Virus record (IMG/VR): IMGVR_UViG_3300035501_000580
Strand: one strand, 5' to 3'
DNA from: a virus
Lineage: Duplodnaviria > Heunggongvirae > Uroviricota > Caudoviricetes
DNA length: 64,000 nt
In this document: positions 2,327 to 56,663 of the stretch, piece by piece
Layout: every line of letters starts with the position of its first letter
Position numbering within the stretch: the stretch's first letter is position 1
The notes under the pieces: generated by a model
Told to the model about the DNA's origin: nothing
Database searches by the model: none
Seen by the model: only the letters and a program-made list of their open reading frames with translations
Program-made: the position numbers and the translations under genes

Positions 2327-4471
2327 TTAATTTTCGTTGTTAAACATTCTATAAAATTTACTTGACTTGGCTTCCTCTTCGGTCTTGAAATAATTACCAG
2401 AGTTATATAGTCTTTCTACTCTTGGTTTGACATCATATTCCTCATCACCATAGTCTTGTTCACTTCTGACTATTCCATCAGCATCTACATAATAAAATTC
2501 TCCATCATAAGCTCGCCACTTTGGACAAACATATTTAGACCAATCTCGTTCTGTGTGACTTGGGAAAAGGATACACTCATTATCTTCATATCCTTGGAGT
2601 GTACCATCTTCATTTAACAACAATCTGGATGACAGTTCCATGTTCGGATTAGTGAAGATTGATATGGTTGTTTCATTAGTTACTTTTCTGATACTTCCAA
2701 ATCTTACATATCCAAAACAGGGCGAATATAACTTGGTTCCCTTGGGTGTTCCATTCAATATCTTGGCAATGTTGATGCCTGTTGTTTTCCAGAATAATGG
2801 ATTTTCATCATCTTCAAAGAACTCATCACACCACAAATAATCATTGGCTTCCTTTGTGAAATAATTACCTTGTTCTGTGACCGACGTAATTGTTAACTCT
2901 TGTCCACAATACTGAGTCATTTTTTTACAGAACCAAATATGTCCGGAGGGTTGATCGATGGCGATATCTCCTATTTCTGTCTTAGCGGATTTATCATACC
3001 ATTCCTTGGATTTTACTCGAACAACATCACCAATTTTATGTTTCGGTTTGACTTCTTCCTTGACCTCAAATTCCGGTTTATCTACGGCTGAGTTAGTATC
3101 ACAGTCAACTTCAATGTCATCAACATCATCAAATATTTCCTCATCCTCATCAACTAAGTCAAAGAACTCATCAGACCAAATGAAATACTGACTATCTTCC
3201 TCCATGAAATAATCACCATTACAGTCGATTGCTTTGATGGTCATTACTTGGTCACAATACTCCTTCATCTCTTGGGTAAAACAAGCATATCCAATTCTAG
3301 TAGGAACAACAACATCACCTAAACCTGACAATTTTCCCTTGGACATTTCATTGAACCATTCCTTGTCATGTATCTTTACCTTGTCACCGATTTTGAACTG
3401 AGGGTAAACGATAATGTCTTCAACACCCCCTTCAAAGAAATCAGGTGCCCAGTCATAATTAAGATCATCTTCCTTCAGTCGGTAGTTTCCATCAGTGTAG
3501 TATGTTTCTTCTTGGATGGTCATTTCCCTTCCACAATACTGAGCCATGTCCTTGGTGAAGTAAAATTTTAGTCCACCTCGTTCCTTGATAAATCCACCAC
3601 ACTCATCTTTCGTCTGTCGTGAAAACCAATCCCAATCTTTAATAGTTACTTTATCACCGGGTGAGTATTTCTTGGCTACCTTTACACACACTTTAATCTT
3701 ATCACCAACGGAATCAAAAAACTTGTCTGACCAAAGGTAATCCTCATCAACACCATCAAGAGTATAAACACCAGACTTAACTCCATTGATTTTCATTATT
3801 TGTCCACAGTAATCATACATCTTCTCCGGAAATTTATATTGAATTCCATCATCCTCGAACTCAACATCACCTTCATTATTGTGGGGCAACAAGTCAAACC
3901 ATTCCTCGGACTTTACCTTGACAACATCTCCTACTTTATATCTTTCGTAATTCGTGTCGTCAGCTAAGTCAAAGAAAGCGGGAGACCAAATGAAATCCAA
4001 CATATCCTCCTTAAGATAATAACCTCCATCTTCAGCTTCCTGTTGAATTGTCATTACTTGTCCACAATACACACTCATCTTCTTGGTGAAATAAACCTCA
4101 TGGTCATCTTCTTCACCAACATAAGCTACTACATCCCCATCAATATCCTTGGGTTGATTAGCGAACCATTCAATAGATTTGATTCGCACCTTTTGACCTT
4201 TTTTATATTCCATCTCTTTTACGTATTCATCAAAAAATCGGTCTATCCAACAAAAATATCCATTATCCTCAGCTAAGTGATATAGACCATTATTTAGCAC
4301 TTCACTGATTGTCATTTTCTTCCCACAATATTCACTCATGGGTCGAAGAAAATAAAGGTTGTTGTTTTGTGAATTAAACTTAAACGGTATGTCACCACTA
4401 TTATCTTTTTGTTGTTCATACCATTCCTTGGACTTAATTCTTACTACATCTCCTACTTTATACTCAGCCAT
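2327..4471 (-). CDS. tandem-repeat protein (714 aa) with six ~95-aa repeats (K.GD.V.IKS.EWF ... YCGQ.MTI ... W.D.FF) plus a distinct C-terminal domain
   Basis: repeats visible directly in the translation; C-terminal ~120 aa paralogous to C-terminus of ORF 4474..4986. Confidence 0.7.
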   Translation of the reverse strand: MAEYKVGDVVRIKSKEWYEQQKDNSGDIPFKFNSQNNNLYFLRPMSEYCGKKMTISEVLNNGLYHLAEDNGYFCWIDRFFDEYVKEMEYKKGQKVRIKSIEWFANQPKDIDGDVVAYVGEEDDHEVYFTKKMSVYCGQVMTIQQEAEDGGYYLKEDMLDFIWSPAFFDLADDTNYERYKVGDVVKVKSEEWFDLLPHNNEGDVEFEDDGIQYKFPEKMYDYCGQIMKINGVKSGVYTLDGVDEDYLWSDKFFDSVGDKIKVCVKVAKKYSPGDKVTIKDWDWFSRQTKDECGGFIKERGGLKFYFTKDMAQYCGREMTIQEETYYTDGNYRLKEDDLNYDWAPDFFEGGVEDIIVYPQFKIGDKVKIHDKEWFNEMSKGKLSGLGDVVVPTRIGYACFTQEMKEYCDQVMTIKAIDCNGDYFMEEDSQYFIWSDEFFDLVDEDEEIFDDVDDIEVDCDTNSAVDKPEFEVKEEVKPKHKIGDVVRVKSKEWYDKSAKTEIGDIAIDQPSGHIWFCKKMTQYCGQELTITSVTEQGNYFTKEANDYLWCDEFFEDDENPLFWKTTGINIAKILNGTPKGTKLYSPCFGYVRFGSIRKVTNETTISIFTNPNMELSSRLLLNEDGTLQGYEDNECILFPSHTERDWSKYVCPKWRAYDGEFYYVDADGIVRSEQDYGDEEYDVKPRVERLYNSGNYFKTEEEAKSSKFYRMFNNEN

Positions 4472-5390: not shown

Positions 5391-5892
5391 TTTTCAGAAA
5401 GTTATAAAATTCAACATTAAATCCTATCACTCTCGCATGTGCTAAGTCACGATAATAAGTGTAATTTTTAATAGCACTCACGAGGTTTTCATTCATCCCT
5501 TCAAAATCATGCTGGAGTCCAAGAACACGTAGAACTTCCAATGACTGATAAATTTCTTCAAACTCATCAAGAACCTCACAAACACATTCGAGGTTGAGGT
5601 CTTGATACATTCCTTCCTTAACAGAACCGAACACATCTTTATATACATTTTTATATGTAGTGTCTAACTCTGCTTTTCTTTTCATAAGGGTGGTGATAAT
5701 CTGTGTGAACCGGGTGACAAAATTACCCCATTCAAATGTCAACAACACACCACTGATGATTGACACATCCTGAGCTTGACGTTTCCTACCATATAAACAA
5801 CTATTAACACAGGTAGCGAATGTCATGTCAGTTTTAGAAGCCAACTCAAAGATAGAGTCAATTAATTTTTTATTTACAGTATTCATATCCAA
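5365..5892 (-). CDS. hypothetical protein (175 aa)
   Basis: ORF in overlapping operon. Confidence 0.5.
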   Translation of the reverse strand: MDMNTVNKKLIDSIFELASKTDMTFATCVNSCLYGRKRQAQDVSIISGVLLTFEWGNFVTRFTQIITTLMKRKAELDTTYKNVYKDVFGSVKEGMYQDLNLECVCEVLDEFEEIYQSLEVLRVLGLQHDFEGMNENLVSAIKNYTYYRDLAHARVIGFNVEFYNFLKNGNTSNHA

Positions 5893-6404
5893 AATCCTTT
5901 TAATACGTCGTTAACTAAATAATCTCGGTCATCTATTTTGTTGAGGTCACGTTTCATATCTTTAATAACCCATGACCAACTTTCCCTAAACGATACGAAA
6001 TTGTTCGCTGTCATTAGGTCAAGTAACTTAGCGATGTCCATTACATTCACATCTTTGAAGTTATAATCATTGTCCATTGGGATTAATTTACCAACTTCAT
6101 GTTCTACCAATGATGTGTAGGTTTTATCCTCATCACAACAGAGTTTATAGATTAACTTTTGTGTGATTAAGGAAGCCGCGATATGTTCAGAAAGAGTGAA
6201 ATAATCGGGGTCATACTCAAGGATATGTTGTTTCTCCTTGTGAGTATTGTAAATCATATCCAAAATCTGAGCTAAGTCTAAGATATGTTTTGGATAGAAT
6301 TCCTCCGTACATACTCTCGAAAAGGAATAACCCTGATAGACGACGAGTTTCTTAGTGATTAACTCATCCAAGGTGTTTGATATTTGTGACTTGTTCATTG
6401 TCAT
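5883..6404 (-). CDS. hypothetical protein (173 aa)
   Basis: ORF; conserved promoter unit at 6417-6470 just upstream in minus sense. Confidence 0.55.
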   Translation of the reverse strand: MTMNKSQISNTLDELITKKLVVYQGYSFSRVCTEEFYPKHILDLAQILDMIYNTHKEKQHILEYDPDYFTLSEHIAASLITQKLIYKLCCDEDKTYTSLVEHEVGKLIPMDNDYNFKDVNVMDIAKLLDLMTANNFVSFRESWSWVIKDMKRDLNKIDDRDYLVNDVLKGFWI

Positions 6405-10336: not shown

Positions 10337-11248
10337 TCAATATTTTTTTTCTTCATTCATAAAATAGTCGATACGGTTTTTGATAGCCGTTCTGAGTAGA
10401 GGTATCTTCTCCAATTTCTGATGTTTAACGATGTCGAGATAAAGTTTGAGAAGTTCGGGTTCATCACTAATTCTAACAGTGGCACCCATTACACCACCCT
10501 TCCAAGAATCCCGATTGACGCCAAGTTCAGTGTCAGATTGGAATTCGAGGTCAACATTTATTTTCTTACAATAATTACCAAGACCTATTTTATTGAGGAA
10601 GGGCACTGACCATTCCCATTGTTCAATCCACCAACGGATACGGGAAACATCTTGAACTGTGTCATTCTTCATACGGTAGGTGGTATTCAATCTAACATCA
10701 ACAAGAGGATAATCATTAATGTCATCTAATTGTCTTTTCTCAACTAACGTCTTATTATTAAAGTCGATTATCCAAGAGTTATCATAGTGGGTTGCTTTGA
10801 AAGGGTTAGAAAAAGTACGGTTACGCCATCTAAAATCAGTCCACCATTTTTCACCATTGATAGAATCCCAACCCCAAGAGTATGAAATAGAAGCATAGTC
10901 AAGACCTGTATTCTCATTGAAGTCATTACCCCATTGCCAACACAAGACACAACCACCAAAATAGATTAGAATTTTGTGAGCCCATTTACAGTCGGTATAA
11001 ACTCCATGATGTGTATAATAAATCATAAGACTGGGGTTGTTATAAAATCCAATATAACCTCGATAGTTTTTGAATTCCTTGACCAGTTCACGATCATTAT
11101 ATTTCTTTCTGTAATACTCTGATATTTCCAATCCCAAAAAATGAAGGATATAAGGAAGTATTAAAATTGCTAAGATAATTAAAACAAATGTTATCATAAT
11201 TAAACGTGTATTATTTCTATTTCCGGAGCGTCTTTGAAATGTTCCCAT
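10337..11248 (-). CDS. Trp-rich membrane-anchored protein (303 aa)
   Basis: N-terminal TM segment IMITFVLIILAILILPYILHFLG; many W residues. Confidence 0.5.
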   Translation of the reverse strand: MGTFQRRSGNRNNTRLIMITFVLIILAILILPYILHFLGLEISEYYRKKYNDRELVKEFKNYRGYIGFYNNPSLMIYYTHHGVYTDCKWAHKILIYFGGCVLCWQWGNDFNENTGLDYASISYSWGWDSINGEKWWTDFRWRNRTFSNPFKATHYDNSWIIDFNNKTLVEKRQLDDINDYPLVDVRLNTTYRMKNDTVQDVSRIRWWIEQWEWSVPFLNKIGLGNYCKKINVDLEFQSDTELGVNRDSWKGGVMGATVRISDEPELLKLYLDIVKHQKLEKIPLLRTAIKNRIDYFMNEEKKY

Positions 11249-12414: not shown

Positions 12415-12756
12415 TTAAAGGTCGATGATTTCATTACCATTAATGTAAGCATAGTCTGCGTTCTTCAAACGGTAGGCATACTTACCATGAACAACACGAC
12501 GTTCAAGATTGTGGTCAACACCTTTGTACTGGGTGTCATACATCATCATTGAGATGATTTTCCAGAGGGGGTGAGAAACTGCTTGACGGGGAGCATTCTT
12601 CTTCTCAACCAGTTTGTTGTCAGATGCCCATGCAATGATTTGATTGACGGTCATCCAGTTATTACCATTGTGACGGAGTGCTTCTACAACTGCGTCTGAG
12701 TAATCTGTTGTGGTCAAAGTACGACCATTTACTTTCACGTTTCCTTTGCGTGCCAT
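12415..12756 (-). CDS. hypothetical protein (113 aa), paralog of 13785..14117
   Basis: shared W(M/A)T.(N/D)(Q/E)...WAS......(K/R)KNA.R.A.SHPLWKIIS.MM segment; flanks tRNA cluster 1. Confidence 0.6.
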   Translation of the reverse strand: MARKGNVKVNGRTLTTTDYSDAVVEALRHNGNNWMTVNQIIAWASDNKLVEKKNAPRQAVSHPLWKIISMMMYDTQYKGVDHNLERRVVHGKYAYRLKNADYAYINGNEIIDL

Positions 12757-12786: not shown

Positions 12787-12861
12787 ATTTAATTTGTGAC
12801 TTCGGTGGGGATCGAACCCACGACCTTCCAGTGTTTAACCAGACGCTCTACCAGCTGAGAC
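12787..12861 (-). tRNA. tRNA, atypical (75 nt; anticodon arm TCTGG/TTAAACA/CTGGA, nominal anticodon AAA; irregular D-arm)
   Basis: reverse complement folds with 7-bp acceptor and T-arm GTGGG-TTCGATC-CCCAC; anticodon arm identical to tRNA at 13197..13268. Confidence 0.55.
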
Positions 12862-12961
12862 GTACGAAGTCAATCAATGCTATCTCACGACATGATGATT
12901 ATTTGTGTGTAAAAATTTAAATTCTATAAGAATAATTTAAAAAAATTAGTAAAAAACTCTG

Positions 12962-13034
12962 TGACTCCGGTGGGGCTCGAACCCACGACCCACTGATTAA
13001 GAGTCAGTTGCTCTACCAACTGAGCTACGAAGCC
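12962..13034 (-). tRNA. tRNA-Lys(CTT)
   Basis: cloverleaf: D-arm GCTC-AGTTGGTA-GAGC, anticodon loop CTCTTAA, T-arm GTGGG-TTCGAGC-CCCAC. Confidence 0.85.
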
Positions 13035-13196
13035 TAATCAATCATGTCTCACGACATGATGATTTTCTCTCTCTCACTTAATAAATAATTTATTTATAAA
13101 TCAAAAACTTATATACAATGAAAAAAAAATAATGTACTAAAAAAAAACACTTACTATGGTTATGTCTCACGACATAAAAGCATCAAATGAAAAAGT

Positions 13197-13268
13197 AACT
13201 CCGATGGGACTCGAACCCACGACCTTCCAGTGTTTAACCAGACGCTCTACCAACTGAGCTACGGAGTT
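13197..13268 (-). tRNA. tRNA, canonical 72-nt cloverleaf but anticodon loop TTAAACA (nominal anticodon AAA, C at position 37)
   Basis: perfect D- and T-arms; anticodon stem needs two G.U pairs; isotype uncertain (Phe-like?). Confidence 0.65.
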
Positions 13269-13460
13269 TAATCAGTCTATCTCACGACATGATGATTATT
13301 TAATGTGTAAATTTTAAACAACTTTAAAAATATCAATTAAAACTCATTTGTTATGGTCATGTCTCACGACATGATAATTAAATCAAAAACTTATATAATA
13401 TTAAAAATATAGTAATATGAAAAAAATGTAATAAAAAAGCATTTCAACAAAATTCTTAGG

Positions 13461-13545
13461 AACTCAGGAGGGACTCGAACCCTCGTCGCATGGGTTTCAA
13501 TAAAGAAATTCAACATAGCTCGACCAACTGAGACTTACTGAGTTC
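13461..13545 (-). tRNA. tRNA-like gene (84-85 nt) with good acceptor and T-arm but no canonical anticodon stem
   Basis: AACTCAG/CTGAGTT acceptor, T-arm GAGGG-TTCGAGT-CCCTC; central region does not fold as standard anticodon/variable arm. Confidence 0.45.
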
Positions 13546-13700
13546 TCCATGAAGGGACTATTCGCGAAAAAGTCCCAGACCAAAGACGTCTCTTTGGGGT
13601 TCTTCAATCTTAGAGCTCGGTCAGATTGAAGGAATGTCTCTTCCAAAAGGTGATCTAATGTGTACCATAACCTTTTAATTTTTGTATTAACAAGAACCTA
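13546..13700. ncRNA. candidate structured RNA (three strong hairpins) adjoining the tRNA-like gene
   Basis: hairpins gggact-N11-agtccc, ccaaaga-cgtc-tctttgg, tcaatct-N12-agattga; no ORF. Confidence 0.3.
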
Positions 13701-13784: not shown

Positions 13785-14117
13785 CTATTTTTGACGACGT
13801 ACCCAACGACGACCATTTTTGTCAATATAGACATTGGATACTTTCAACTTGTAGATGAAAACATTGTTGATGTTTGACATTCGAGTGATGACCGGATTTT
13901 TTTCCTCCATCATGTTAGAGATGATTTTCCAGAGGGGGTGAGACATTGCCTTTCGATATGCGTTCTTACGTTCACATAAGTTGTGGTGAGATGCCCACTC
14001 GACCATTTCGTCACAAGTCATCCATTTGTTATTGTTTTCTTCGAGGGTAGTAATGACTGCTTGTTTATATTTTTCTTGTGTCATTACCTGACCATTTACG
14101 ATTACTGAACCTTTCAT
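13785..14117 (-). CDS. hypothetical protein (110 aa), paralog of 12415..12756
   Basis: shared motif; preceded by triplicated promoter unit. Confidence 0.6.
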   Translation of the reverse strand: MKGSVIVNGQVMTQEKYKQAVITTLEENNNKWMTCDEMVEWASHHNLCERKNAYRKAMSHPLWKIISNMMEEKNPVITRMSNINNVFIYKLKVSNVYIDKNGRRWVRRQK

Positions 14118-14134: not shown

Positions 14135-14425
14135 AGTTAAACTTTGTTTTTGTTTTACATTACAAAGATACTTGATTTTTTCGACCTGACCAAATTTTAA
14201 GTGTTAAAAATTTGTTAAATCTTTTTTCAATCATCTTGTGTAATGTTGTTTTTAATTACACTACAAAGATACTTGATTTTTTTGACTTGACCAAATTTTA
14301 AGAGCTAAAAATTTGTTAAATCTTTTTTCAATCATCTTTTCAATGTTCTTTTTGTTTTACACTACAAAGTTACAGGTTTTTTATAACATCTCCAAATTTT
14401 AAGTGCTAAAACTTTGTTAAAAATC
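14135..14425 (-). promoter_or_regulatory. three tandem copies of the ~70-bp conserved promoter unit (Bacteroidetes-type -33 TTTG / -7 TAnnTTTG)
   Basis: minus-sense reading gives AAATTTGG-N19-TAACTTTG/TATCTTTG then TAGTGTAA; three near-identical copies in series. Confidence 0.7.
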
Positions 14426-15002
14426 AAATGAAGTCCAAAAGGGTTACATTTGAGGTGGGTTCAATAGTTTCGTTTTTTCGTTTCGCATAGAACCAAGGGA
14501 TAAGTTTCTCATACCATCGAGAATCTTTTTGGTCTGTTGCTGAGATAATAGACATATCAGTGAAATCAGGTGAACCAACATATACCTTCTCATTATCAAA
14601 CTTACGTCTACAACCAAGCAAGTGAACATTATTTCTAAAATATCTACTTGTGAATTCCTTACATAGTTTAATGAATTCCACTTCTTGTATTAATGACGCC
14701 TTTTTTGTATCGAGGGTGAGAATGATGTAATAATCGGTATCTTTATCACCAAAGTTGTCTATCTTATTAATAGTGTGTAGTGTGAATACTCTGGGATTAT
14801 AACTTTTGGTTTCATATATCCCATCACAGACAGATACATTACCATGATCATCAAATCGGACATTAATATCAAGAACTCTAATACCTTCTTTGAGTTGTTG
14901 TCCTAAGTCCTTACTTTGGTGTTTATACATTGGAGTAAGAAACCACATCCACCATTTCTTAGGTGTGATATAACTTAATGATTTATGACTTCCTAATATC
15001 AT
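14424..15002 (-). CDS. hypothetical protein (192 aa)
   Basis: ORF. Confidence 0.5.
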   Translation of the reverse strand: MILGSHKSLSYITPKKWWMWFLTPMYKHQSKDLGQQLKEGIRVLDINVRFDDHGNVSVCDGIYETKSYNPRVFTLHTINKIDNFGDKDTDYYIILTLDTKKASLIQEVEFIKLCKEFTSRYFRNNVHLLGCRRKFDNEKVYVGSPDFTDMSIISATDQKDSRWYEKLIPWFYAKRKNETIEPTSNVTLLDFI

Positions 15003-15216: not shown

Positions 15217-17127
15217 CTATATTTTCAAACCCATAAGATATACATCTAACACATGAGAAAGACCATTTGGTGCATATGTTTTAACTATTTCTGTTCTACT
15301 GGTCATCTTTAGTTTTTCTATCATTTCAGTATTTGGATTTGGGTCTATATATATGATAGGTGTAGTCGATGGAACATAAGTCATTAAATTGGCTGCGGGG
15401 AAAGTTTCTAATGAAGTTCCCACCATTACGAATATGTCACAAGACCTAACCAATTCGATAGCTTCTGTCATTCTATTTACGGTTTCGTGATATAGAGTAA
15501 TCCAAGGTCTCATCTTTGCATTACCATTTGATGTCTGTTTGACTTTTGGGAAATAAGTCCAAACCTTAGCATCTGTTGGTAATCCACAATCTTTATGACT
15601 TTCTGTTGTGTCTATTGTTACAACTCCGGATTGTACATACTTACCATTTACTTTTTTATATTTTGAAACTCCTGCCAATGTTGTTGTTGTTGTGTTATCA
15701 TCTTCGGAAACACTTTTTGTCCAATATGATAAGTCAGCATGGTAGTTTGTATTATCGACATCATCTTCATTGCACATAATCATTAAATTACCATGAAGAT
15801 GTATAAGGTGTTCATCTATGAATTCTTTCGCTGTCATAGATTTTCCAATATTGGTAAATTTCATATATTTATAAAAACCACTATCACTAATTCCATATAT
15901 CGGGGGTTCATATGACGTGTTATAATATCTAAAAAAATAGTCACATAATGCTTTGTCATGTAGGTCATCAATATTCTGAGTAATGATTTTCACATCAAAG
16001 GTATTATGTTTATTTGTTCCTTCACCAATAGTATCATTAATGAATTTATTTATAATTTGATAACCAAGATGCATGGTATTTTTATTAATGTAACTGGCTC
16101 TCAATTCATTAAAAAATCTATTCAAGAAAACAGGGTCAGAATTCCACCCGGATTTTGTCATTATCATATCAATAGGGTTCTCATACCACAAATTACCTTC
16201 TTCCTCACTCTTATATGTATAGATACCATTTTCCTCACTCATACCCGCACCTGTAAAGAAAACAATTCTAACAGGGACTTCACTTGTTTTAATAAGGTCA
16301 TCTTCAGGCCAACCATATTTCTCTAATACTTCCTCAGCTTTAAGAATTAGATAGTTAGCACTTGAATCTGTTCTTGACCATTGTTTATACATTTTCTTTT
16401 TTACTCTATCTCTATCGGTCAAATTTGTTTCATCCTCTGTATGTGTCCAAGTTCCACTATCCCAAGGTTGTTTATATATTCTGGGAAATGTGTGTGTGGT
16501 AAATCGTTTATATTCTTGAAGTGTTTTACCGATACAAGTGTTATAGAATATTCGTCTTTGTGACTTATTCATATTATTTTTCATCGCAACATAAGCCCAG
16601 TGAACATGGGGGTATCTGGCATCCATTACGGGATAATATGTGTATGATGTTCTAAAAGGCGTTAGAGCTTCGGAATCAATCAATGTGAATAATAATGATT
16701 GTATTTCGACAGATATAGATTTGAATTTCTCATTTAGCTCACCTGTTTTTAAATATTGTGGAACATTTTGTGTGGTACTATCATAACTAGCAAGAATAAT
16801 ATTATTATACAGATATAAATCTTCAATTTGTGATATTGTAAGATATGTATTTTGAGTTAAAGATATTGATTTAACACCATTTGGGTGAATTTTTACATCT
16901 TCATTACCATCATACCACCCATCAGTCTCAATTATTCTATTGTTATATACGGGTCTATATACTTGTCGAGTTGTACCATCATCTGAAGTGACAGTAACAA
17001 TTCTACTACCTTTTGGTACATAATAGTTGCCCATCTTATAACAAATTCTATATATTTGTTTATATAGTTTTTGTATTTGACAGGCGGTTTTATAATCTTC
17101 TATAAATTTGTTTTGAAGAAAAGCCAT
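15217..17127 (-). CDS. SIR2-family (sirtuin-like) protein, 636 aa, with ~280-aa unknown N-terminal domain; no zinc-ribbon cysteines
   Basis: motifs TGAGMS (Rossmann GAG.S), TQNIDDLH (QNID.LH), HLHGNL (catalytic HG), VMVGTSLETFPAANL (GTSL.V.P) in correct order. Confidence 0.75.
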   Translation of the reverse strand: MAFLQNKFIEDYKTACQIQKLYKQIYRICYKMGNYYVPKGSRIVTVTSDDGTTRQVYRPVYNNRIIETDGWYDGNEDVKIHPNGVKSISLTQNTYLTISQIEDLYLYNNIILASYDSTTQNVPQYLKTGELNEKFKSISVEIQSLLFTLIDSEALTPFRTSYTYYPVMDARYPHVHWAYVAMKNNMNKSQRRIFYNTCIGKTLQEYKRFTTHTFPRIYKQPWDSGTWTHTEDETNLTDRDRVKKKMYKQWSRTDSSANYLILKAEEVLEKYGWPEDDLIKTSEVPVRIVFFTGAGMSEENGIYTYKSEEEGNLWYENPIDMIMTKSGWNSDPVFLNRFFNELRASYINKNTMHLGYQIINKFINDTIGEGTNKHNTFDVKIITQNIDDLHDKALCDYFFRYYNTSYEPPIYGISDSGFYKYMKFTNIGKSMTAKEFIDEHLIHLHGNLMIMCNEDDVDNTNYHADLSYWTKSVSEDDNTTTTTLAGVSKYKKVNGKYVQSGVVTIDTTESHKDCGLPTDAKVWTYFPKVKQTSNGNAKMRPWITLYHETVNRMTEAIELVRSCDIFVMVGTSLETFPAANLMTYVPSTTPIIYIDPNPNTEMIEKLKMTSRTEIVKTYAPNGLSHVLDVYLMGLKI

Positions 17128-34939: not shown

Positions 34940-35010
34940 TTTTTAATTACACTACAAAGTTACAGGTTTTTTCTAACATCTCCAAATTTTAAGTGCTAAA
35001 AATTTGTTAA
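34940..35010 (-). promoter_or_regulatory. conserved promoter unit
   Basis: -7 box TAACTTTG (rc of 34956-34963), -33 TTTG (rc of 34983-34986), 19-nt spacer. Confidence 0.7.
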
Positions 35011-35013
35011 AAG

Positions 35014-37952: not shown

Positions 37953-38158
37953 TTTTTATAAATGTGAAGTTGAATTATTAAGATGATATAAACTACAACG
38001 GATCCCCAAGAAAAGAGTGACATTATAAAGTGAAATATCAAATCACGTTGTATGTTTTTGAACCTAAGAGATGATTTTTTGTAATCACTCAATATGATAT
38101 GGATAGTATAAAGTCCAAGACAATATGCTACTAAAATACCTAAAATATATCCTATCAT
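37949..38158 (-). CDS. small 2-TM membrane protein (69 aa)
   Basis: two hydrophobic helices; translationally coupled to upstream NTase (ATGA overlap). Confidence 0.45.
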   Translation of the reverse strand: MIGYILGILVAYCLGLYTIHIILSDYKKSSLRFKNIQRDLIFHFIMSLFSWGSVVVYIILIIQLHIYKN

Positions 38159-39429
38159 TTCTGGTTGAATTTATTTCGTGCATATAACAGGAGGTCATTT
38201 ACCATATCAACAGAAATCTCATCAGGAATAACAGATTTAGATATTTCTTCATCCATTTGAGATTTAAGTTCTGTTAGTTTAGACATCAACTCATCATAAG
38301 TATATTTTCTATTTCTAACATCAAGGAGAAAATCAGCATCAATTCCTCTACGGTCAAGTTTAAGTCCTTCACCCTTAGCTACTTCAATCGCCATAGAAAT
38401 CAGACGGAAACAGTGACACATATTCTTAGCATCATAGAACTTCGCTGAGTTTTCTTTTTCGAGTCCTTCAAGGTTGTTTTCATACCGAGCTTTGTTACGG
38501 TTTTTCTTCCAATCCTCATACTCACGATATTTCTTACAATGTTGTCTATAACCATTTTCATTGTAAGACATATAACAAATAGGTGTAGAACCTTTTAATG
38601 TTTCTGAAAAACGGATTTCATTACTTGAACCCACATTAGAAATGATACCGCAGTGTTTACCAAAAGGAGTTTTAATTTTTTCATAAAGATTTTTCATTAC
38701 CCAAGACCATTTCATTTCGGTCTGGTCAAATTTAGATGTTAAAGTTGTATATACATAGTTCAAGAATTTGTCATTACGATTTTTTTCGTCGGTGAAAAAT
38801 TCTTTTGTGATACCATTTAGTTCAATGTGTTGACCAAAGTCATAGAACACATCAAACATATTAGGCATATTGGGCACATTTACCAATCCACAGTTACTTT
38901 GGTCAAGACCTCGTTCACTGAGCCAAGTTTGAATGTTTTGACTACCCTGTCCCTTAAAAGTATAACAAAAATCGAGGGGAGTCTTTCTAACCATCTTCTC
39001 AATGTCCCAGTGAATTTTCTTATCTTGTCCCTGAGCCTTTTTAATCTGAGACACAGCATAACCACCAAAAGGCATGAAACATTGTTTGGTGATGAATTGG
39101 TCACGATACTTTTTGATATTCGTAATGATGGGGTGTTCATACAAGACCTTATCATCAGGAACGAACAGGGCTTCCAATACAGTGGGGTTAGATGATAGGA
39201 GTAGTCTCATGAACTTACCTATCTCCCACCAACAGGTATCATGTTTCTCATCACAGATTTCATTCTGGTAATCAAAACCAAGGTCAAGAAGTTGATTTGA
39301 GGGAGCGATATAGATACCACCTTCATCAACGTCACTTGTTTCGACATTGGTACCATAGACCTGTGAACCCCTTATGTAACGATATAAGAGAAGTCCTTTA
39401 TCTTCTATGTCTTTGAATGTTAGTTTCAT
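38155..39429 (-). CDS. pol-beta-superfamily nucleotidyltransferase, 424 aa (OAS/cGAS/DncV-like arrangement GS.VYGT-N5-SDVDEG)
   Basis: N-terminal RGSQVYGTNVETSDVDEGGIYI signature. Confidence 0.55.
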   Translation of the reverse strand: MKLTFKDIEDKGLLLYRYIRGSQVYGTNVETSDVDEGGIYIAPSNQLLDLGFDYQNEICDEKHDTCWWEIGKFMRLLLSSNPTVLEALFVPDDKVLYEHPIITNIKKYRDQFITKQCFMPFGGYAVSQIKKAQGQDKKIHWDIEKMVRKTPLDFCYTFKGQGSQNIQTWLSERGLDQSNCGLVNVPNMPNMFDVFYDFGQHIELNGITKEFFTDEKNRNDKFLNYVYTTLTSKFDQTEMKWSWVMKNLYEKIKTPFGKHCGIISNVGSSNEIRFSETLKGSTPICYMSYNENGYRQHCKKYREYEDWKKNRNKARYENNLEGLEKENSAKFYDAKNMCHCFRLISMAIEVAKGEGLKLDRRGIDADFLLDVRNRKYTYDELMSKLTELKSQMDEEISKSVIPDEISVDMVNDLLLYARNKFNQK

Positions 39430-49398: not shown

Positions 49399-49780
49399 TT
49401 GTTTGTTTTACATATTGTGTATGGTCAGAATAACCAAGGATGTAAATTATTAAAATCTCTTTCTTCACTTACATTTGGTTCATTTAACATCTGACGAATT
49501 TGGTAGTCAGTAAAGTTTCTCAACTGTTTTTCAAAAGTAACATCTTCAAATCGCATAGGTAGAAAATTTTAAGGTTAGTATTAATGCGGAGAGCAGTGGA
49601 CACGAACCACATACGATTACTCGTACAATCGGTTTAGCAGACCGTCCTTTTACCTCAAAAGTTTACTCTCCATAATCAACAAGATTCAAAATCAAAACCA
49701 CCTATATAAATTTATGTACTAAAAAGTTGCGGTATGAATCTTTACTTCATCTAATATATTTATGTAATTGTGAGCCCGGT

Positions 49781-53173: not shown

Positions 53174-53255
53174 CGACTGAGGCGGGAAGGATTTGAACCA
53201 ACAACCAGGATCCCATGCACTACTCCGTTGCCCACTGAGGGGTAAATCCCTCTTC
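53174..53255 (-). other. tRNA-like element (T-loop GGTTCAAATCC) without foldable cloverleaf; flanked by direct repeat ACTGAGG
   Basis: T-arm-like segment only; acceptor complement absent. Confidence 0.25.
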
Positions 53256-53269
53256 CCTTAGTTATCGCT

Positions 53270-53560
53270 TTACGTTTCTGTTCCTCGTGTCACTTGTGTC
53301 CGTATTCCCTTTGTGTCAGTCCGTATTCCATTTTGTGTCACCGAGTTCGTATTCCATTTTGTGTCATCCAGTTTTCCCATTGTGTCATCCCGTTTCCATC
53401 CGGTTCCTGTTTCTGTATCAAGAGTTTCCATCTGTTTCTGTATCCACTTGTGTCCGTATTCCCCAGTGTCCGTTTCCATGTTTTTGTGTCACCTGTAATC
53501 TGTTGTGTCACCCGTAGTCCTATTGCGTTTCCGTAGTTGTGTCGTAGTAGGAAATTACCT
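53270..53560. repeat. degenerate tandem repeat array (TTGTGTCA / GTATTCC / GTTTCC units, ~20-24 bp period), strongly pyrimidine-skewed on plus strand
   Basis: read directly: cttgtgtccgtattcc, ctttgtgtcagtccgtattcc, attttgtgtcaccgagttcgtattcc ... Confidence 0.7.
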
Positions 53561-53590
53561 ACTCTATCCAAATTGAGCTACCGCCCATGG
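53551..53590 (-). pseudogene. tRNA 5'-half fragment (acceptor + D-arm GCTC-AATTTGGATA-GAGT) lacking T-arm
   Basis: reverse complement GGGCGGTAGCTCAATTTGGATAGAGTAGGTAATTTC; no downstream T-arm. Confidence 0.35.
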
Positions 53591-53663: not shown

Positions 53664-53753
53664 AAACTTAAATTGTAATTCTACTTCAAAGAACTGTATA
53701 TTAAATATAACAAATAATCTTGATTTCTCTCAGATTTATTGTTTTTTTTTCTG

Positions 53754-53826
53754 TGGAGAAGGATGGAATCGAACCATCATAAGAGGATTTTCAGTCCACC
53801 GCATTGACCAACTTTGCTACCTCTCC
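53754..53826 (-). tRNA. tRNA-Phe(GAA)
   Basis: anticodon loop CTGAAAA, T-arm GATGG-TTCGATT-CCATC. Confidence 0.8.
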
Positions 53827-55610: not shown

Positions 55611-55688
55611 TGGTCAGGTGGGAAGGACTCGAACCTCCAACAGTACGACCTACTTCGGCCGCCCTCTAACCAATTGATCTACCACCTG
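55611..55688 (-). tRNA. tRNA-like gene with genomically encoded CCA; good acceptor/T-arm, irregular D- and anticodon arms; 5' part overlaps the last 8 codons of HNH gene
   Basis: acceptor CAGGTGG/CCACCTG, T-arm GGAGG-TTCGAGT-CCTTC, ACCA tail; anticodon stem closes a 6-nt loop. Confidence 0.4.
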
Positions 55689-56253: not shown

Positions 56254-56524
56254 CCAAGGAATTGAACCTTTGTGGTTGAAAAATGTCTAACCACCTACGA
56301 CCTCCGGAGAGTCATCCCTATTACCAAACAGGGCAAGAACAGACAAGTGACCATTGTTTTGGTACAATGGAGAAAACCCGTACAAGGCTACCAATTAGGC
56401 GGCGGCGTACATGACCTTTTCGGGTCGTGAAAAATTGTTGCCAGTTAAATAGGCCATAGACTTCTCCTTCATTCCTACTCATATGTCATCAATACCAGTC
56501 ATCCCCTTATATTTATTTTACTTT

Positions 56525-56560
56525 GTGGAGATGGTGGGGATCGAACCCACGTCTAACATA
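56525..56560 (-). pseudogene. tRNA 3'-half fragment (variable loop + T-arm GTGGG-TTCGATC-CCCAC + acceptor CATCTCC-A)
   Basis: no matching 5' half (GGAGATG) nearby. Confidence 0.4.
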
Positions 56561-56589
56561 CTTTCTTAATATTATCAACAAAATCTATA

Positions 56590-56663
56590 GTGGTCCGGAT
56601 AGGGCTTGAACCTATGACCTTCTGATTATGAGTCAGCTGCTCTAACCAACTGAGCTACGGGAC
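56590..56663 (-). tRNA. tRNA-Met(CAT), second copy (distinct sequence; elongator/initiator/Ile2 not resolvable)
   Basis: anticodon loop CTCATAA, T-arm ATAGG-TTCAAGC-CCTAT. Confidence 0.8.

Follow-up and report, generated by a model that had tools for sequence, protein, structure and literature searches.

Two tRNA genes with an AAA anticodon and a cytosine at position 37

This study concerns two paralogous tRNA genes, here called odd1 and odd2, in a stretch of 64,000 nucleotides (nt; hereafter the window) that is part of a large Caudoviricetes phage genome (IMG/VR record IMGVR_UViG_3300035501_000580), contigs with the same genes reaching 326–352 kb. The genes of the window are all on the minus strand, and its G+C content is 33–37%. 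tRNA genes were called with ARAGORN, at the default and at a relaxed threshold, and with the Rfam model RF00005 (gathering score 29). odd2 (13196–13268, minus strand) is a canonical cloverleaf according to ARAGORN, Rfam and its fold, as a preliminary description of the window had noted; it is 73 nt long and is called tRNA-Phe(aaa) by ARAGORN. Its paralog odd1 (12797–12871, minus strand), which that description had placed 10 nt too low, at 12787–12861, is 75 nt long and has, as was seen then, extra nucleotides in the D region, two in number; ARAGORN is silent on it at the default threshold and gives tRNA-Phe(aaa) only when the threshold is relaxed. Both genes have the 7-, 4-, 5- and 5-bp stems, the conserved D- and T-loop nucleotides and the discriminator base A73, and score 58.8 (odd2) and 39.8 bits (odd1) against the Rfam model. 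In odd2, direct reading finds all of the conserved tertiary nucleotides, with U8, A14, G15-C48, G18G19, G26, G46, G53, T54 Psi55 C56, R57, A58, C61 and A73.

The identity of the two anticodon arms, already pointed out in the preliminary description, is exact. The 23-mer GTCTGGTTAAACACTGGAAGGTC, at 13221–13243 in odd2 and at 12822–12844 in odd1, occurs exactly twice in the window, both times on the minus strand, with 0 occurrences expected by chance, and the identical run actually covers 41 nt (GGTAGAGC...GGGTTCGA). In both copies the anticodon stem consists of U27-A43, C28-G42, U29.G41, G30.U40 and G31-C39, that is, with two G.U pairs, and the loop reads U32 U33 A34 A35 A36 C37 A38; the fold thus agrees with the earlier reading of a TTAAACA loop with an AAA anticodon and C37. 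In a canonical decoding tRNA the loop is 7 nt long, position 33 is a U and position 37 a purine, whereas here U33 is present and position 37 is a C in both copies and in both phage haplotypes described below. No acceptable alternative fold, of the kind considered in the preliminary description as a way out of this reading, was found: stem registers shifted by 1 or 2 nt, examined by hand, which would give a UAA or UUA anticodon with U33 and R37, leave 3–4 mismatches in five pairs, and RNAfold keeps the anticodon arm, its sole change being a stem lengthened by U32-A38. A permissive Rfam scan of the whole cluster returned tRNA plus chance-level matches and nothing else. odd1 and odd2 are genuine tRNA genes with intact structure.

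Origin in the tRNA-Lys lineage

The odd genes belong to a cluster in the 1,028 nt of intergenic DNA that separate two small genes, themselves paralogs. On the minus strand, the order from 5′ to 3′ is a fourth tRNA-like element (13547–13462), odd2 (13268–13196), a tRNA-Lys(CUU) gene (13034–12962) and odd1 (12871–12797). The tRNA-Lys(CUU) gene lying between the odd tRNAs is their closest relative, with 81% identity overall and 86% outside the anticodon arm, and when the backbones outside the arm were compared with a set of about 160 phage tRNAs, the three nearest neighbours were all tRNA-Lys (identity 0.81–0.86). odd1 and odd2 are thus duplicates from the tRNA-Lys lineage of the phage itself that have received a new anticodon arm. 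The Lys gene at this position may be ancestral and the odd genes local duplicates, because a contig of another phage (L002) that encodes a homologue of a flanking protein also carries a tRNA-Lys(UUU). The body and A73 of the odd tRNAs match tRNA-Lys, and in place of the YUU anticodon of this isotype there is AAA. The main determinants of recognition by LysRS are U35 and U36.

Three comparisons bear on the source of the arm. Aligned in register to Lys arms it has 11 matches in 23 positions; an alignment to Lys(CUU) in which the sequence slides by 3 nt has 15 matches in 20 positions with two gaps; and inversion of the hairpin loop, from CUUUUAA to UUAAAAG, matches at five of seven positions. The slide and the inversion are suggestive at most, since neither can be demonstrated and neither accounts for C37.

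The fourth tRNA-like element (13462–13547, minus strand), delimited by direct reading, folding and the repeat families D2 and D4, possesses an acceptor stem, a canonical T arm and the same irregular D arm as odd1 (GUCUCAG..GAGC), together with a 27-nt anticodon region that contains no usable anticodon loop. ARAGORN reports it as 'tRNA-??? (ta)' only with the relaxed threshold.

Assembly support and conservation

The DNA of the cluster is 100% identical in at least nine independent metagenome contigs of the phage from several JGI and Logan samples (including L003, L007, L010 and L014), and the anticodon arm is present in both haplotypes. A sequencing or assembly error in the loop, which the preliminary description had considered, is thereby excluded.

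Conservation was assessed between two phage haplotypes only, the second being represented by contigs L008, L009, L011, L012 and L013. The four tRNA-like elements together differ by 2 substitutions in 307 nt, and their anticodon arms are unchanged, whereas the spacers at 13035–13195 and 13269–13461 have 31 substitutions in 279 aligned nt (about 11%) and 95 indel columns. odd2 has 1 substitution in 73 nt (G57A, which exchanges one T-loop purine for another), compared with about 8 expected if it diverged like the flanking spacers. The sole change in odd1, A68G, converts U5-A68 into U5.G68 and so keeps the pair, and the fourth element has 0 substitutions in 86 nt. The blocks that are conserved between the haplotypes correspond to the units of leader plus tRNA. 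The divergence is mosaic along the region, and some adjacent coding regions have 0 substitutions.

The stem differences between odd1 and odd2 all preserve pairing (G-C/A-U at 1-72, U-A/C-G at 5-68 and G-C/G.U at 49-65), and RNAalifold applied to the family recovers the cloverleaf, with compensatory double changes at 10 of 21 pairs; the fold has thus been under selection since the two copies diverged. A pseudogene would be expected to lose pairing and to change at the neutral rate. For odd2 this is not the case, given its intact structure, the compensatory changes, and one change in 73 nt compared with about 11% in the spacers. For odd1 the situation is less clear, as it has a bulge in the D arm and its flanking spacers, being without substitutions, provide no yardstick.

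Leader motif and flanking genes

The motif ATGTCGTGAGA, the core of the palindrome CATGTC-GTGA-GACATG, occurs in five exact copies on the minus strand (12883–12893, 13047–13057, 13165–13175, 13280–13290 and 13362–13372; repeat families D3 and D5), all inside 12883–13372 and none elsewhere in the 64 kb. One copy lies 11–12 nt upstream of each of odd2, tRNA-Lys and odd1, inside a shared leader, AATCATCATGTCGTGAGA, and could mark either a promoter or a processing element. The leaders are conserved between the haplotypes. What is conserved in them is the 5′ arm and the 'loop' of the palindrome rather than its pairing, a pattern that would be more in keeping with a site recognized by its sequence, for instance a promoter or an operator bound by a protein, than with a simple RNA hairpin.

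Directly downstream of the cluster is a gene for a protein of 113 aa (12415–12756, minus strand), the ATG of which is 40 nt from the end of odd1, and directly upstream is its paralog of 110 aa (13785–14117, minus strand); both are open reading frames (ORFs), and the two proteins are 52% identical (E 1e-26). A winged-helix fold is predicted for the pair: the AlphaFold2 (AF2) model of the 113-aa protein has a predicted local distance difference test (pLDDT) score of 70.7, and Foldseek matches it weakly to the winged helices of forkhead, Fur and H1. The winged-helix paralogs may bind the CATGTC-GTGA-GACATG palindromes. The homologue of the 110-aa protein in the L002 contig mentioned above is 56% identical. 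The small protein encoded beside the AAA tRNA of contig L023 (see below) is unrelated to the flanking winged-helix paralogs.

In the region 13455–13700 (minus strand), upstream of the fourth element, about 150 nt contain strong hairpins, with the arms CTTCAATCT/AGATTGAAG, CCAAAGA/TCTTTGG and GGGACT/AGTCCC. The hairpins and the fourth element together form a region of 240 nt that is near-invariant between the haplotypes, with six differences that by eye lie in hairpin loops; Rfam gives only a chance-level match to a tmRNA 3′ end in it, and the fold z-score is -1.55. The segment 13455–13700 may be a structured noncoding RNA with a terminal tRNA-like domain. Further upstream of the 110-aa gene, the intergenic segment 14144–14421 contains a direct repeat with an offset of about 100 nt and 85% identity, and a 66-nt element at 14357–14422 is repeated 20 kb away at 34947–35012 with 97% identity. 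Accessory genes in the window (10337–11248, 15217–17127, 14424–15002 and 38155–39429) include one with a Pfam match to Acb3, a CBASS inhibitor (30.7 bits), a gene for a 636-aa Sir2-domain protein, one for a small PI-PLC X domain-like protein and one for a nucleotidyltransferase of the RlaP family (RNA-repair pathway).

The main tRNA array and the composition of the window

About 20 tRNAs and a permuted transfer-messenger RNA (tmRNA) form the main array at 48.7–62.5 kb. As the preliminary description had it, a conventional tRNA-Phe(GAA) is present; ARAGORN places it within this array at 53753–53826 on the minus strand. The tmRNA gene (56304–56615, minus strand; Rfam tmRNA_permuted, 60.7 bits; ARAGORN tag GNNFSRPEKVMYAAA*) adjoins a tRNA-Met. 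Further non-canonical or weak tRNA-like sequences of the array, also on the minus strand, are a 30.2-bit match with an aberrant anticodon loop (55614–55688), a 35.4-bit match called Ser-GCT only with the relaxed threshold (49588–49670) and tRNA-half-like pieces that no tool calls (53174–53275 and 53490–53590). No Val or Trp isotype is found among the tRNA calls of the window, and Arg is present only in the relaxed ARAGORN run.

A codon table was built from 74 ORFs of the window; the late genes fall outside it. TTT and TTC are used at 64:36, at 29 per 1000 codons, so the enrichment in UUU that the preliminary description had suggested looking for is not specially marked in these ORFs. This had gone unnoticed there, as had the minus-strand orientation of the genes, their position on either side of a tRNA-Lys(CUU) gene and derivation from it, and the aberrant fourth element. 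The dinucleotide GpC is strongly depleted (odds ratio 0.45) and NGC codons are nearly missing (TGC 10 vs. TGT 287, AGC 6, GGC 15, CGC 7), and the window has 0 GCGC (11.7 expected), 6 CTAG (99 expected) and 46 GATC (240 expected). Judged by these counts, the depletion looks like avoidance of restriction sites or of GpC methylation.

The same loop and other AAA anticodons in viruses

Neither the exact 23-mer of the arm nor a body-specific degenerate pattern had a match in IMG/VR, nor did the leader 18-mer in the same database, and protein-based searches for the locus with three neighbouring genes also gave 0 matches. The arm patterns had 0 matches in JGI metagenome contigs, a weak null since that collection evidently does not contain this phage. 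INPHARED blastn returned just generic tRNA bodies of about 80% identity, e.g. a LUZ24-like tRNA-Pro with the loop CUUGGAC. No relative of the phage more than about 6% diverged was found in these searches.

A loop pattern independent of the tRNA body matched 10 stretches in IMG/VR. Three of these prove to be tRNA(UAA) when read in a different register, and a fourth is no tRNA at all; the remaining six have TTAAACA in the anticodon loop. Among these, four are AAA tRNAs with a 7-nt loop, from two lineages (L016/L019/L021 and L023), and two have the 8-nt loop UUAAACAA, called by ARAGORN with the 4-base anticodon 'aaac' (L017, 4476–4553; L024, 2030–2107). L017 and L024 are related viral contigs; the former also carries a CUA suppressor tRNA and the latter a second tRNA called with the 4-base anticodon 'acaa'. 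JGI metagenome contigs add L051, L052 and L055 to the set with the loop. In cells, a search of one genome per species for 185,579 bacterial and archaeal species (596 Gb), with a loop pattern that is restrictive, found the pattern in 10 places, a single one of which is a tRNA (L034), on a contig of a metagenome-assembled genome with 67% G+C and phage genes.

Besides the odd tRNAs, viral AAA tRNAs with C37 are thus known from five lineages (L016/L051, L023, L034, L052 and L055). They have exactly the same 7-nt loop, on backbones with differing acceptor stems and discriminators and no homology in the stem sequences. An A15:U48 core unites L016a, L023 and L055, and with them more loosely L034, in a group apart from odd1/odd2, and L052 is Phe-like, so that the UUAAACA loop occurs on at least two or three backbones other than that of the odd tRNAs. 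Its recurrence on different viral backbones, and its near absence from the 185,579 cellular genomes, suggest that the loop itself is under selection.

A wider scan of IMG/VR for Y-U-AAA-N-A loops gave AAA tRNA lineages with A37 (six), G37 (six), C37 (two to three) and U37 (one), a split that does not support C37 as the dominant form among AAA tRNAs. Contigs with such tRNAs are L073, L088 and L092 (A37), L078, L081 and L085 (G37) and L077 (U37). Some viral AAA tRNAs have clear Phe bodies, like G34A variants. In L085 the AAA tRNA is part of a large array, and it is the only Phe tRNA called in the retrieved part of the contig. Phe-AAA has further A34 tRNAs as neighbours in large phage arrays, namely His-AUG (L093) and Thr-AGU (L092), and the L092 array also holds a UUA (ochre) suppressor tRNA.

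The L016 contig (and L051) encodes two AAA tRNAs, at 4258–4334 and 5885–5958, one with C37 and one with A37. Each lies directly behind a conserved promoter-like box, CGCGAA...TATTATGA. The acceptor stem of each is 8 bp long, which can equally be read as a G-1:C73 pair like that of tRNA-His. The AAA tRNAs of L016 and L023 each have a same-strand ORF about 30 nt downstream, and the one after the first L016 gene, of 257 aa, has a hydrophobic N-terminal stretch. Phage arrays of seven other contigs (L018, L020, L022, L036, L038, L040 and L044) contain type I tRNAs of 75–77 nt with a UAA anticodon and the loop CUUAAAC; bacterial tRNA-Leu normally has a long variable arm.

The premise of the preliminary description that A34 is normally restricted to tRNA-Arg(ACG) holds for bacteria (PMC8007984). 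In the Phe/Leu box the A34 option is reported to be missing universally, and the same 'prohibited' anticodons are described as absent from the tRNA sets of phages (PMC8007984). AAA is therefore outside the set used by bacteria and phages (PMC8007984), as is reflected in the one tRNA with the loop found among the 185,579 species. As far as the sequences surveyed go, the viral AAA tRNAs are a rare and virus-restricted exception to the missing A34 of the Phe/Leu box.

Discussion

We tentatively favor, without great confidence, the interpretation that odd1 and odd2 are selectively maintained elongator tRNAs that read UUU and probably insert phenylalanine. In its favor are their canonical structure, the selection on the fold, the conservation between haplotypes, the identity across assemblies, and the occurrence of AAA tRNAs, some with exactly this loop, in other phage contigs. 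We infer expression, processing, charging, amino-acid identity and decoding as follows. The genes would be transcribed on the minus strand and the transcripts trimmed by RNase P and RNase Z, and a host enzyme would add CCA, since none is encoded. Charging with phenylalanine is probable because A35, A36 and A73 are main determinants of PheRS; U20 is present as well, and the PheRS rules of the host may differ from the E. coli set. The charged tRNAs would then read UUU through three Watson-Crick A-U pairs and supplement the phage tRNA-Phe(GAA), and C37, without which five A's would follow one another, would fix the pairing register in the absence of i6A37. That an AAA tRNA can read UUU in vivo in E. 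coli is known from the yeast tRNA-Phe(AAA) system, and a M. jannaschii tRNA(AAA) gave 3.2% reassignment at UUU in the same host (PMC11066159).

A considerable number of observations weigh against such a decoding role. The odd tRNAs lack G34, which also counts among the PheRS determinants, and have AGGUC as variable loop instead of GUGUC (the Phe-type core of E. coli has G44-U45-G46-U47), the body is of the Lys type with nearest neighbours outside the arm that are Lys and not Phe, and the D arm of odd1 is bulged. Virtually every decoding tRNA has a purine at position 37, and three A-U pairs without a modified purine there should decode weakly; in the L016 lineage this position is C in some contigs and A in L073. 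A distance of 35 kb separates the genes from the main array of 20 tRNAs, and the accessory genes around them are without annotation. The skew towards TTT is smaller than that of AAT:AAC (72:28) and TAT:TAC (79:21), both of which are without an A34 tRNA. Only two haplotypes could be compared, and the fourth tRNA-like element, which does not decode, is as conserved as the odd tRNAs, so conservation at this locus is no proof of decoding.

The preliminary description had proposed unusual decoders, suppressor-like or recoding tRNAs, or tRNA-like regulatory RNAs. The suppressor-like and recoding options can be dropped. No register places UUA, CUA or UCA at positions 34–36 with a paired stem, and AAA pairs with no stop codon; frameshift suppression by quadruplet reading needs an 8-nt loop, and the loop here has 7 nt and is closed by G31-C39; and the ORFs of the window are intact in the normal code 11, with TAA, TGA and TAG all serving as stops. 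The unusual decoder and the tRNA-like regulatory RNA both stand as candidates. Going by the published specificity of TadA, deamination of A34 to I34 would be unlikely: the loop context is U33-A34-C35-G36 in the substrate, tRNA-Arg(ACG), and UAAA in the odd tRNAs.

A somewhat more doubtful, though serious, possibility is that the odd RNAs do not decode at all and that the Lys body serves stability, processing or recognition while the anticodon loop is displayed as the functional part, as a decoy, competitive inhibitor or sponge for a host defence nuclease that targets tRNAs, or as a binder of complementary anticodon loops, e.g. of tRNA-Lys(UUU), Asn(GUU) and Thr(UGU). This would explain a Lys-type body with an anticodon that LysRS cannot use, a C37 ill-suited to decoding, and the location of the genes outside the main array beside tRNA-Lys and a conserved non-decoding element, in an accessory region that includes the gene with the Acb3 match and the Sir2-domain gene. 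It would also fit the occurrence of the loop on different phage backbones and its essential absence from cells, and phage tRNAs are known as counter-measures to anticodon nucleases (PMC10264068, PMC11555353). However, the support for a decoy or similar activity is indirect, and the base at position 37 varies within the L016 lineage. The narrower version, anti-defence tRNA mimics on a tRNA-Lys scaffold that would trap or block a tRNA-targeting nuclease or shield the anticodons of its targets, seems highly improbable. It has one specific lead: AriB of PARIS cleaves tRNA-Lys(UUU), Thr(UGU) and Asn(GUU) at U36AAUC|A41, U39A abolishes the cleavage, and the resistant T5 tRNA-Lys reads U36AAACC41 (PMC12409363). 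The odd loop, U33-AAACA-38, equals the AriB site with the U-to-A change that abolishes cleavage, and within AAACA the codons of all three AriB targets, AAA, AAC and ACA, can be read in overlap. But the match is just 6 nt, was noticed after many ideas had been tried and is 3 nt out of register, the true site spanning the junction of loop and stem, and recognition by AriB extends to the D loop and to further distal positions.

The odd genes could also be neutral or recently inactivated tRNA-Lys duplicates, their arm kept identical by recent duplication or gene conversion and their apparent conservation due to tRNA copies acting as recombination anchors between haplotypes. The D-arm insertion and low score (39.8 bits) of odd1 would agree with decay, as would the plainly defective fourth element, the further degenerate tRNA-like pieces in the window (55614–55688, and near 53174–53275 and 53490–53590), the breakage of contigs inside the cluster, which marks it as repeat-rich, the mosaic divergence with unchanged coding regions nearby, and the mixed origin of AAA tRNAs elsewhere, with any base at position 37, as for sporadic mutants. 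We nevertheless regard such a relic as unlikely, in view of the compensatory acceptor-stem changes between odd1 and odd2, the single change in the 73 nt of odd2 where about 8 were expected, and the coincidence of the conserved blocks with the leader-plus-tRNA units; moreover, no canonical loop is one mutation away from UUAAACA, and the same loop is found on unrelated backbones. The cloverleaves might, finally, act as processing punctuation, that is, as RNase P and RNase Z signals at which a polycistronic transcript is cleaved and which set the 5′ end of the 113-aa mRNA, with the loop irrelevant. For both enzymes the acceptor and T domains suffice, the ATG of the 113-aa gene follows 40 nt after odd1, and the L016 and L023 AAA tRNAs are similarly close (about 30 nt) to an ORF. 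An irrelevant loop, however, would not stay identical in paralogs with diverged acceptor stems, nor recur exactly on other backbones, and compact phage genomes normally have their tRNAs and ORFs close together, which makes this explanation quite improbable.

Several known systems resemble the odd tRNAs in part. The phage elongator tRNAs that escape anticodon nucleases (T5 tRNA-Lys, Thr and Asn against PARIS; mycobacteriophage tRNAs) are likewise phage-borne intact cloverleaves (PMC10264068, PMC12409363), with a member of the Lys family, accessory genes nearby and an anticodon loop or stem off the host norm. They keep their cognate anticodon and a purine at position 37, whereas the odd tRNAs have changed to AAA with C37 and therefore cannot replace tRNA-Lys. 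A genomic and probably unmodified A34 that reads NNU is found in tRNA-Thr(AGU) and tRNA-Leu(AAG) of Mollicutes, Leuconostocaceae and some Firmicutes (PMC8007984, PMC3711424), but these tRNAs serve four-codon boxes and have a purine at position 37, in contrast to the split Phe/Leu box and the C37 of the odd tRNAs. The anticodon itself is shared with engineered yeast tRNA-Phe(AAA), M. jannaschii tRNA-Tyr(AAA) and a mistranslating variant of human tRNA-Ser(AAA), and decoding of UUU at low efficiency in vivo has been shown for engineered tRNA(AAA) (PMC11066159, PMC12993449). Unlike the odd tRNAs, all of these are artificial or single-nucleotide anticodon variants of an unchanged tRNA, and none has C37. 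Yeast tRNA-Phe(AAA) was reportedly used for the reassignment of UUU by Kwon in 2003.

What is new here is the existence of phage tRNA genes that combine a forbidden anticodon with a pyrimidine at position 37 and that, as read from their sequences, are intact, duplicated and conserved, with a loop that recurs in viruses. A34 in the Phe/Leu box is regarded as forbidden across life, and a purine at position 37 is near-universal. If charged and used, the odd tRNAs would be a natural exception to both rules and would provide a ready UUU-specific scaffold with which the two Phe codons could be separated. Without charging, they would have the shape of a tRNA and a role outside translation, possibly in the conflict between phage and host over tRNA cleavage, and, should they prove to be anti-defence mimics, they would represent a new class of phage RNA counter-defence.

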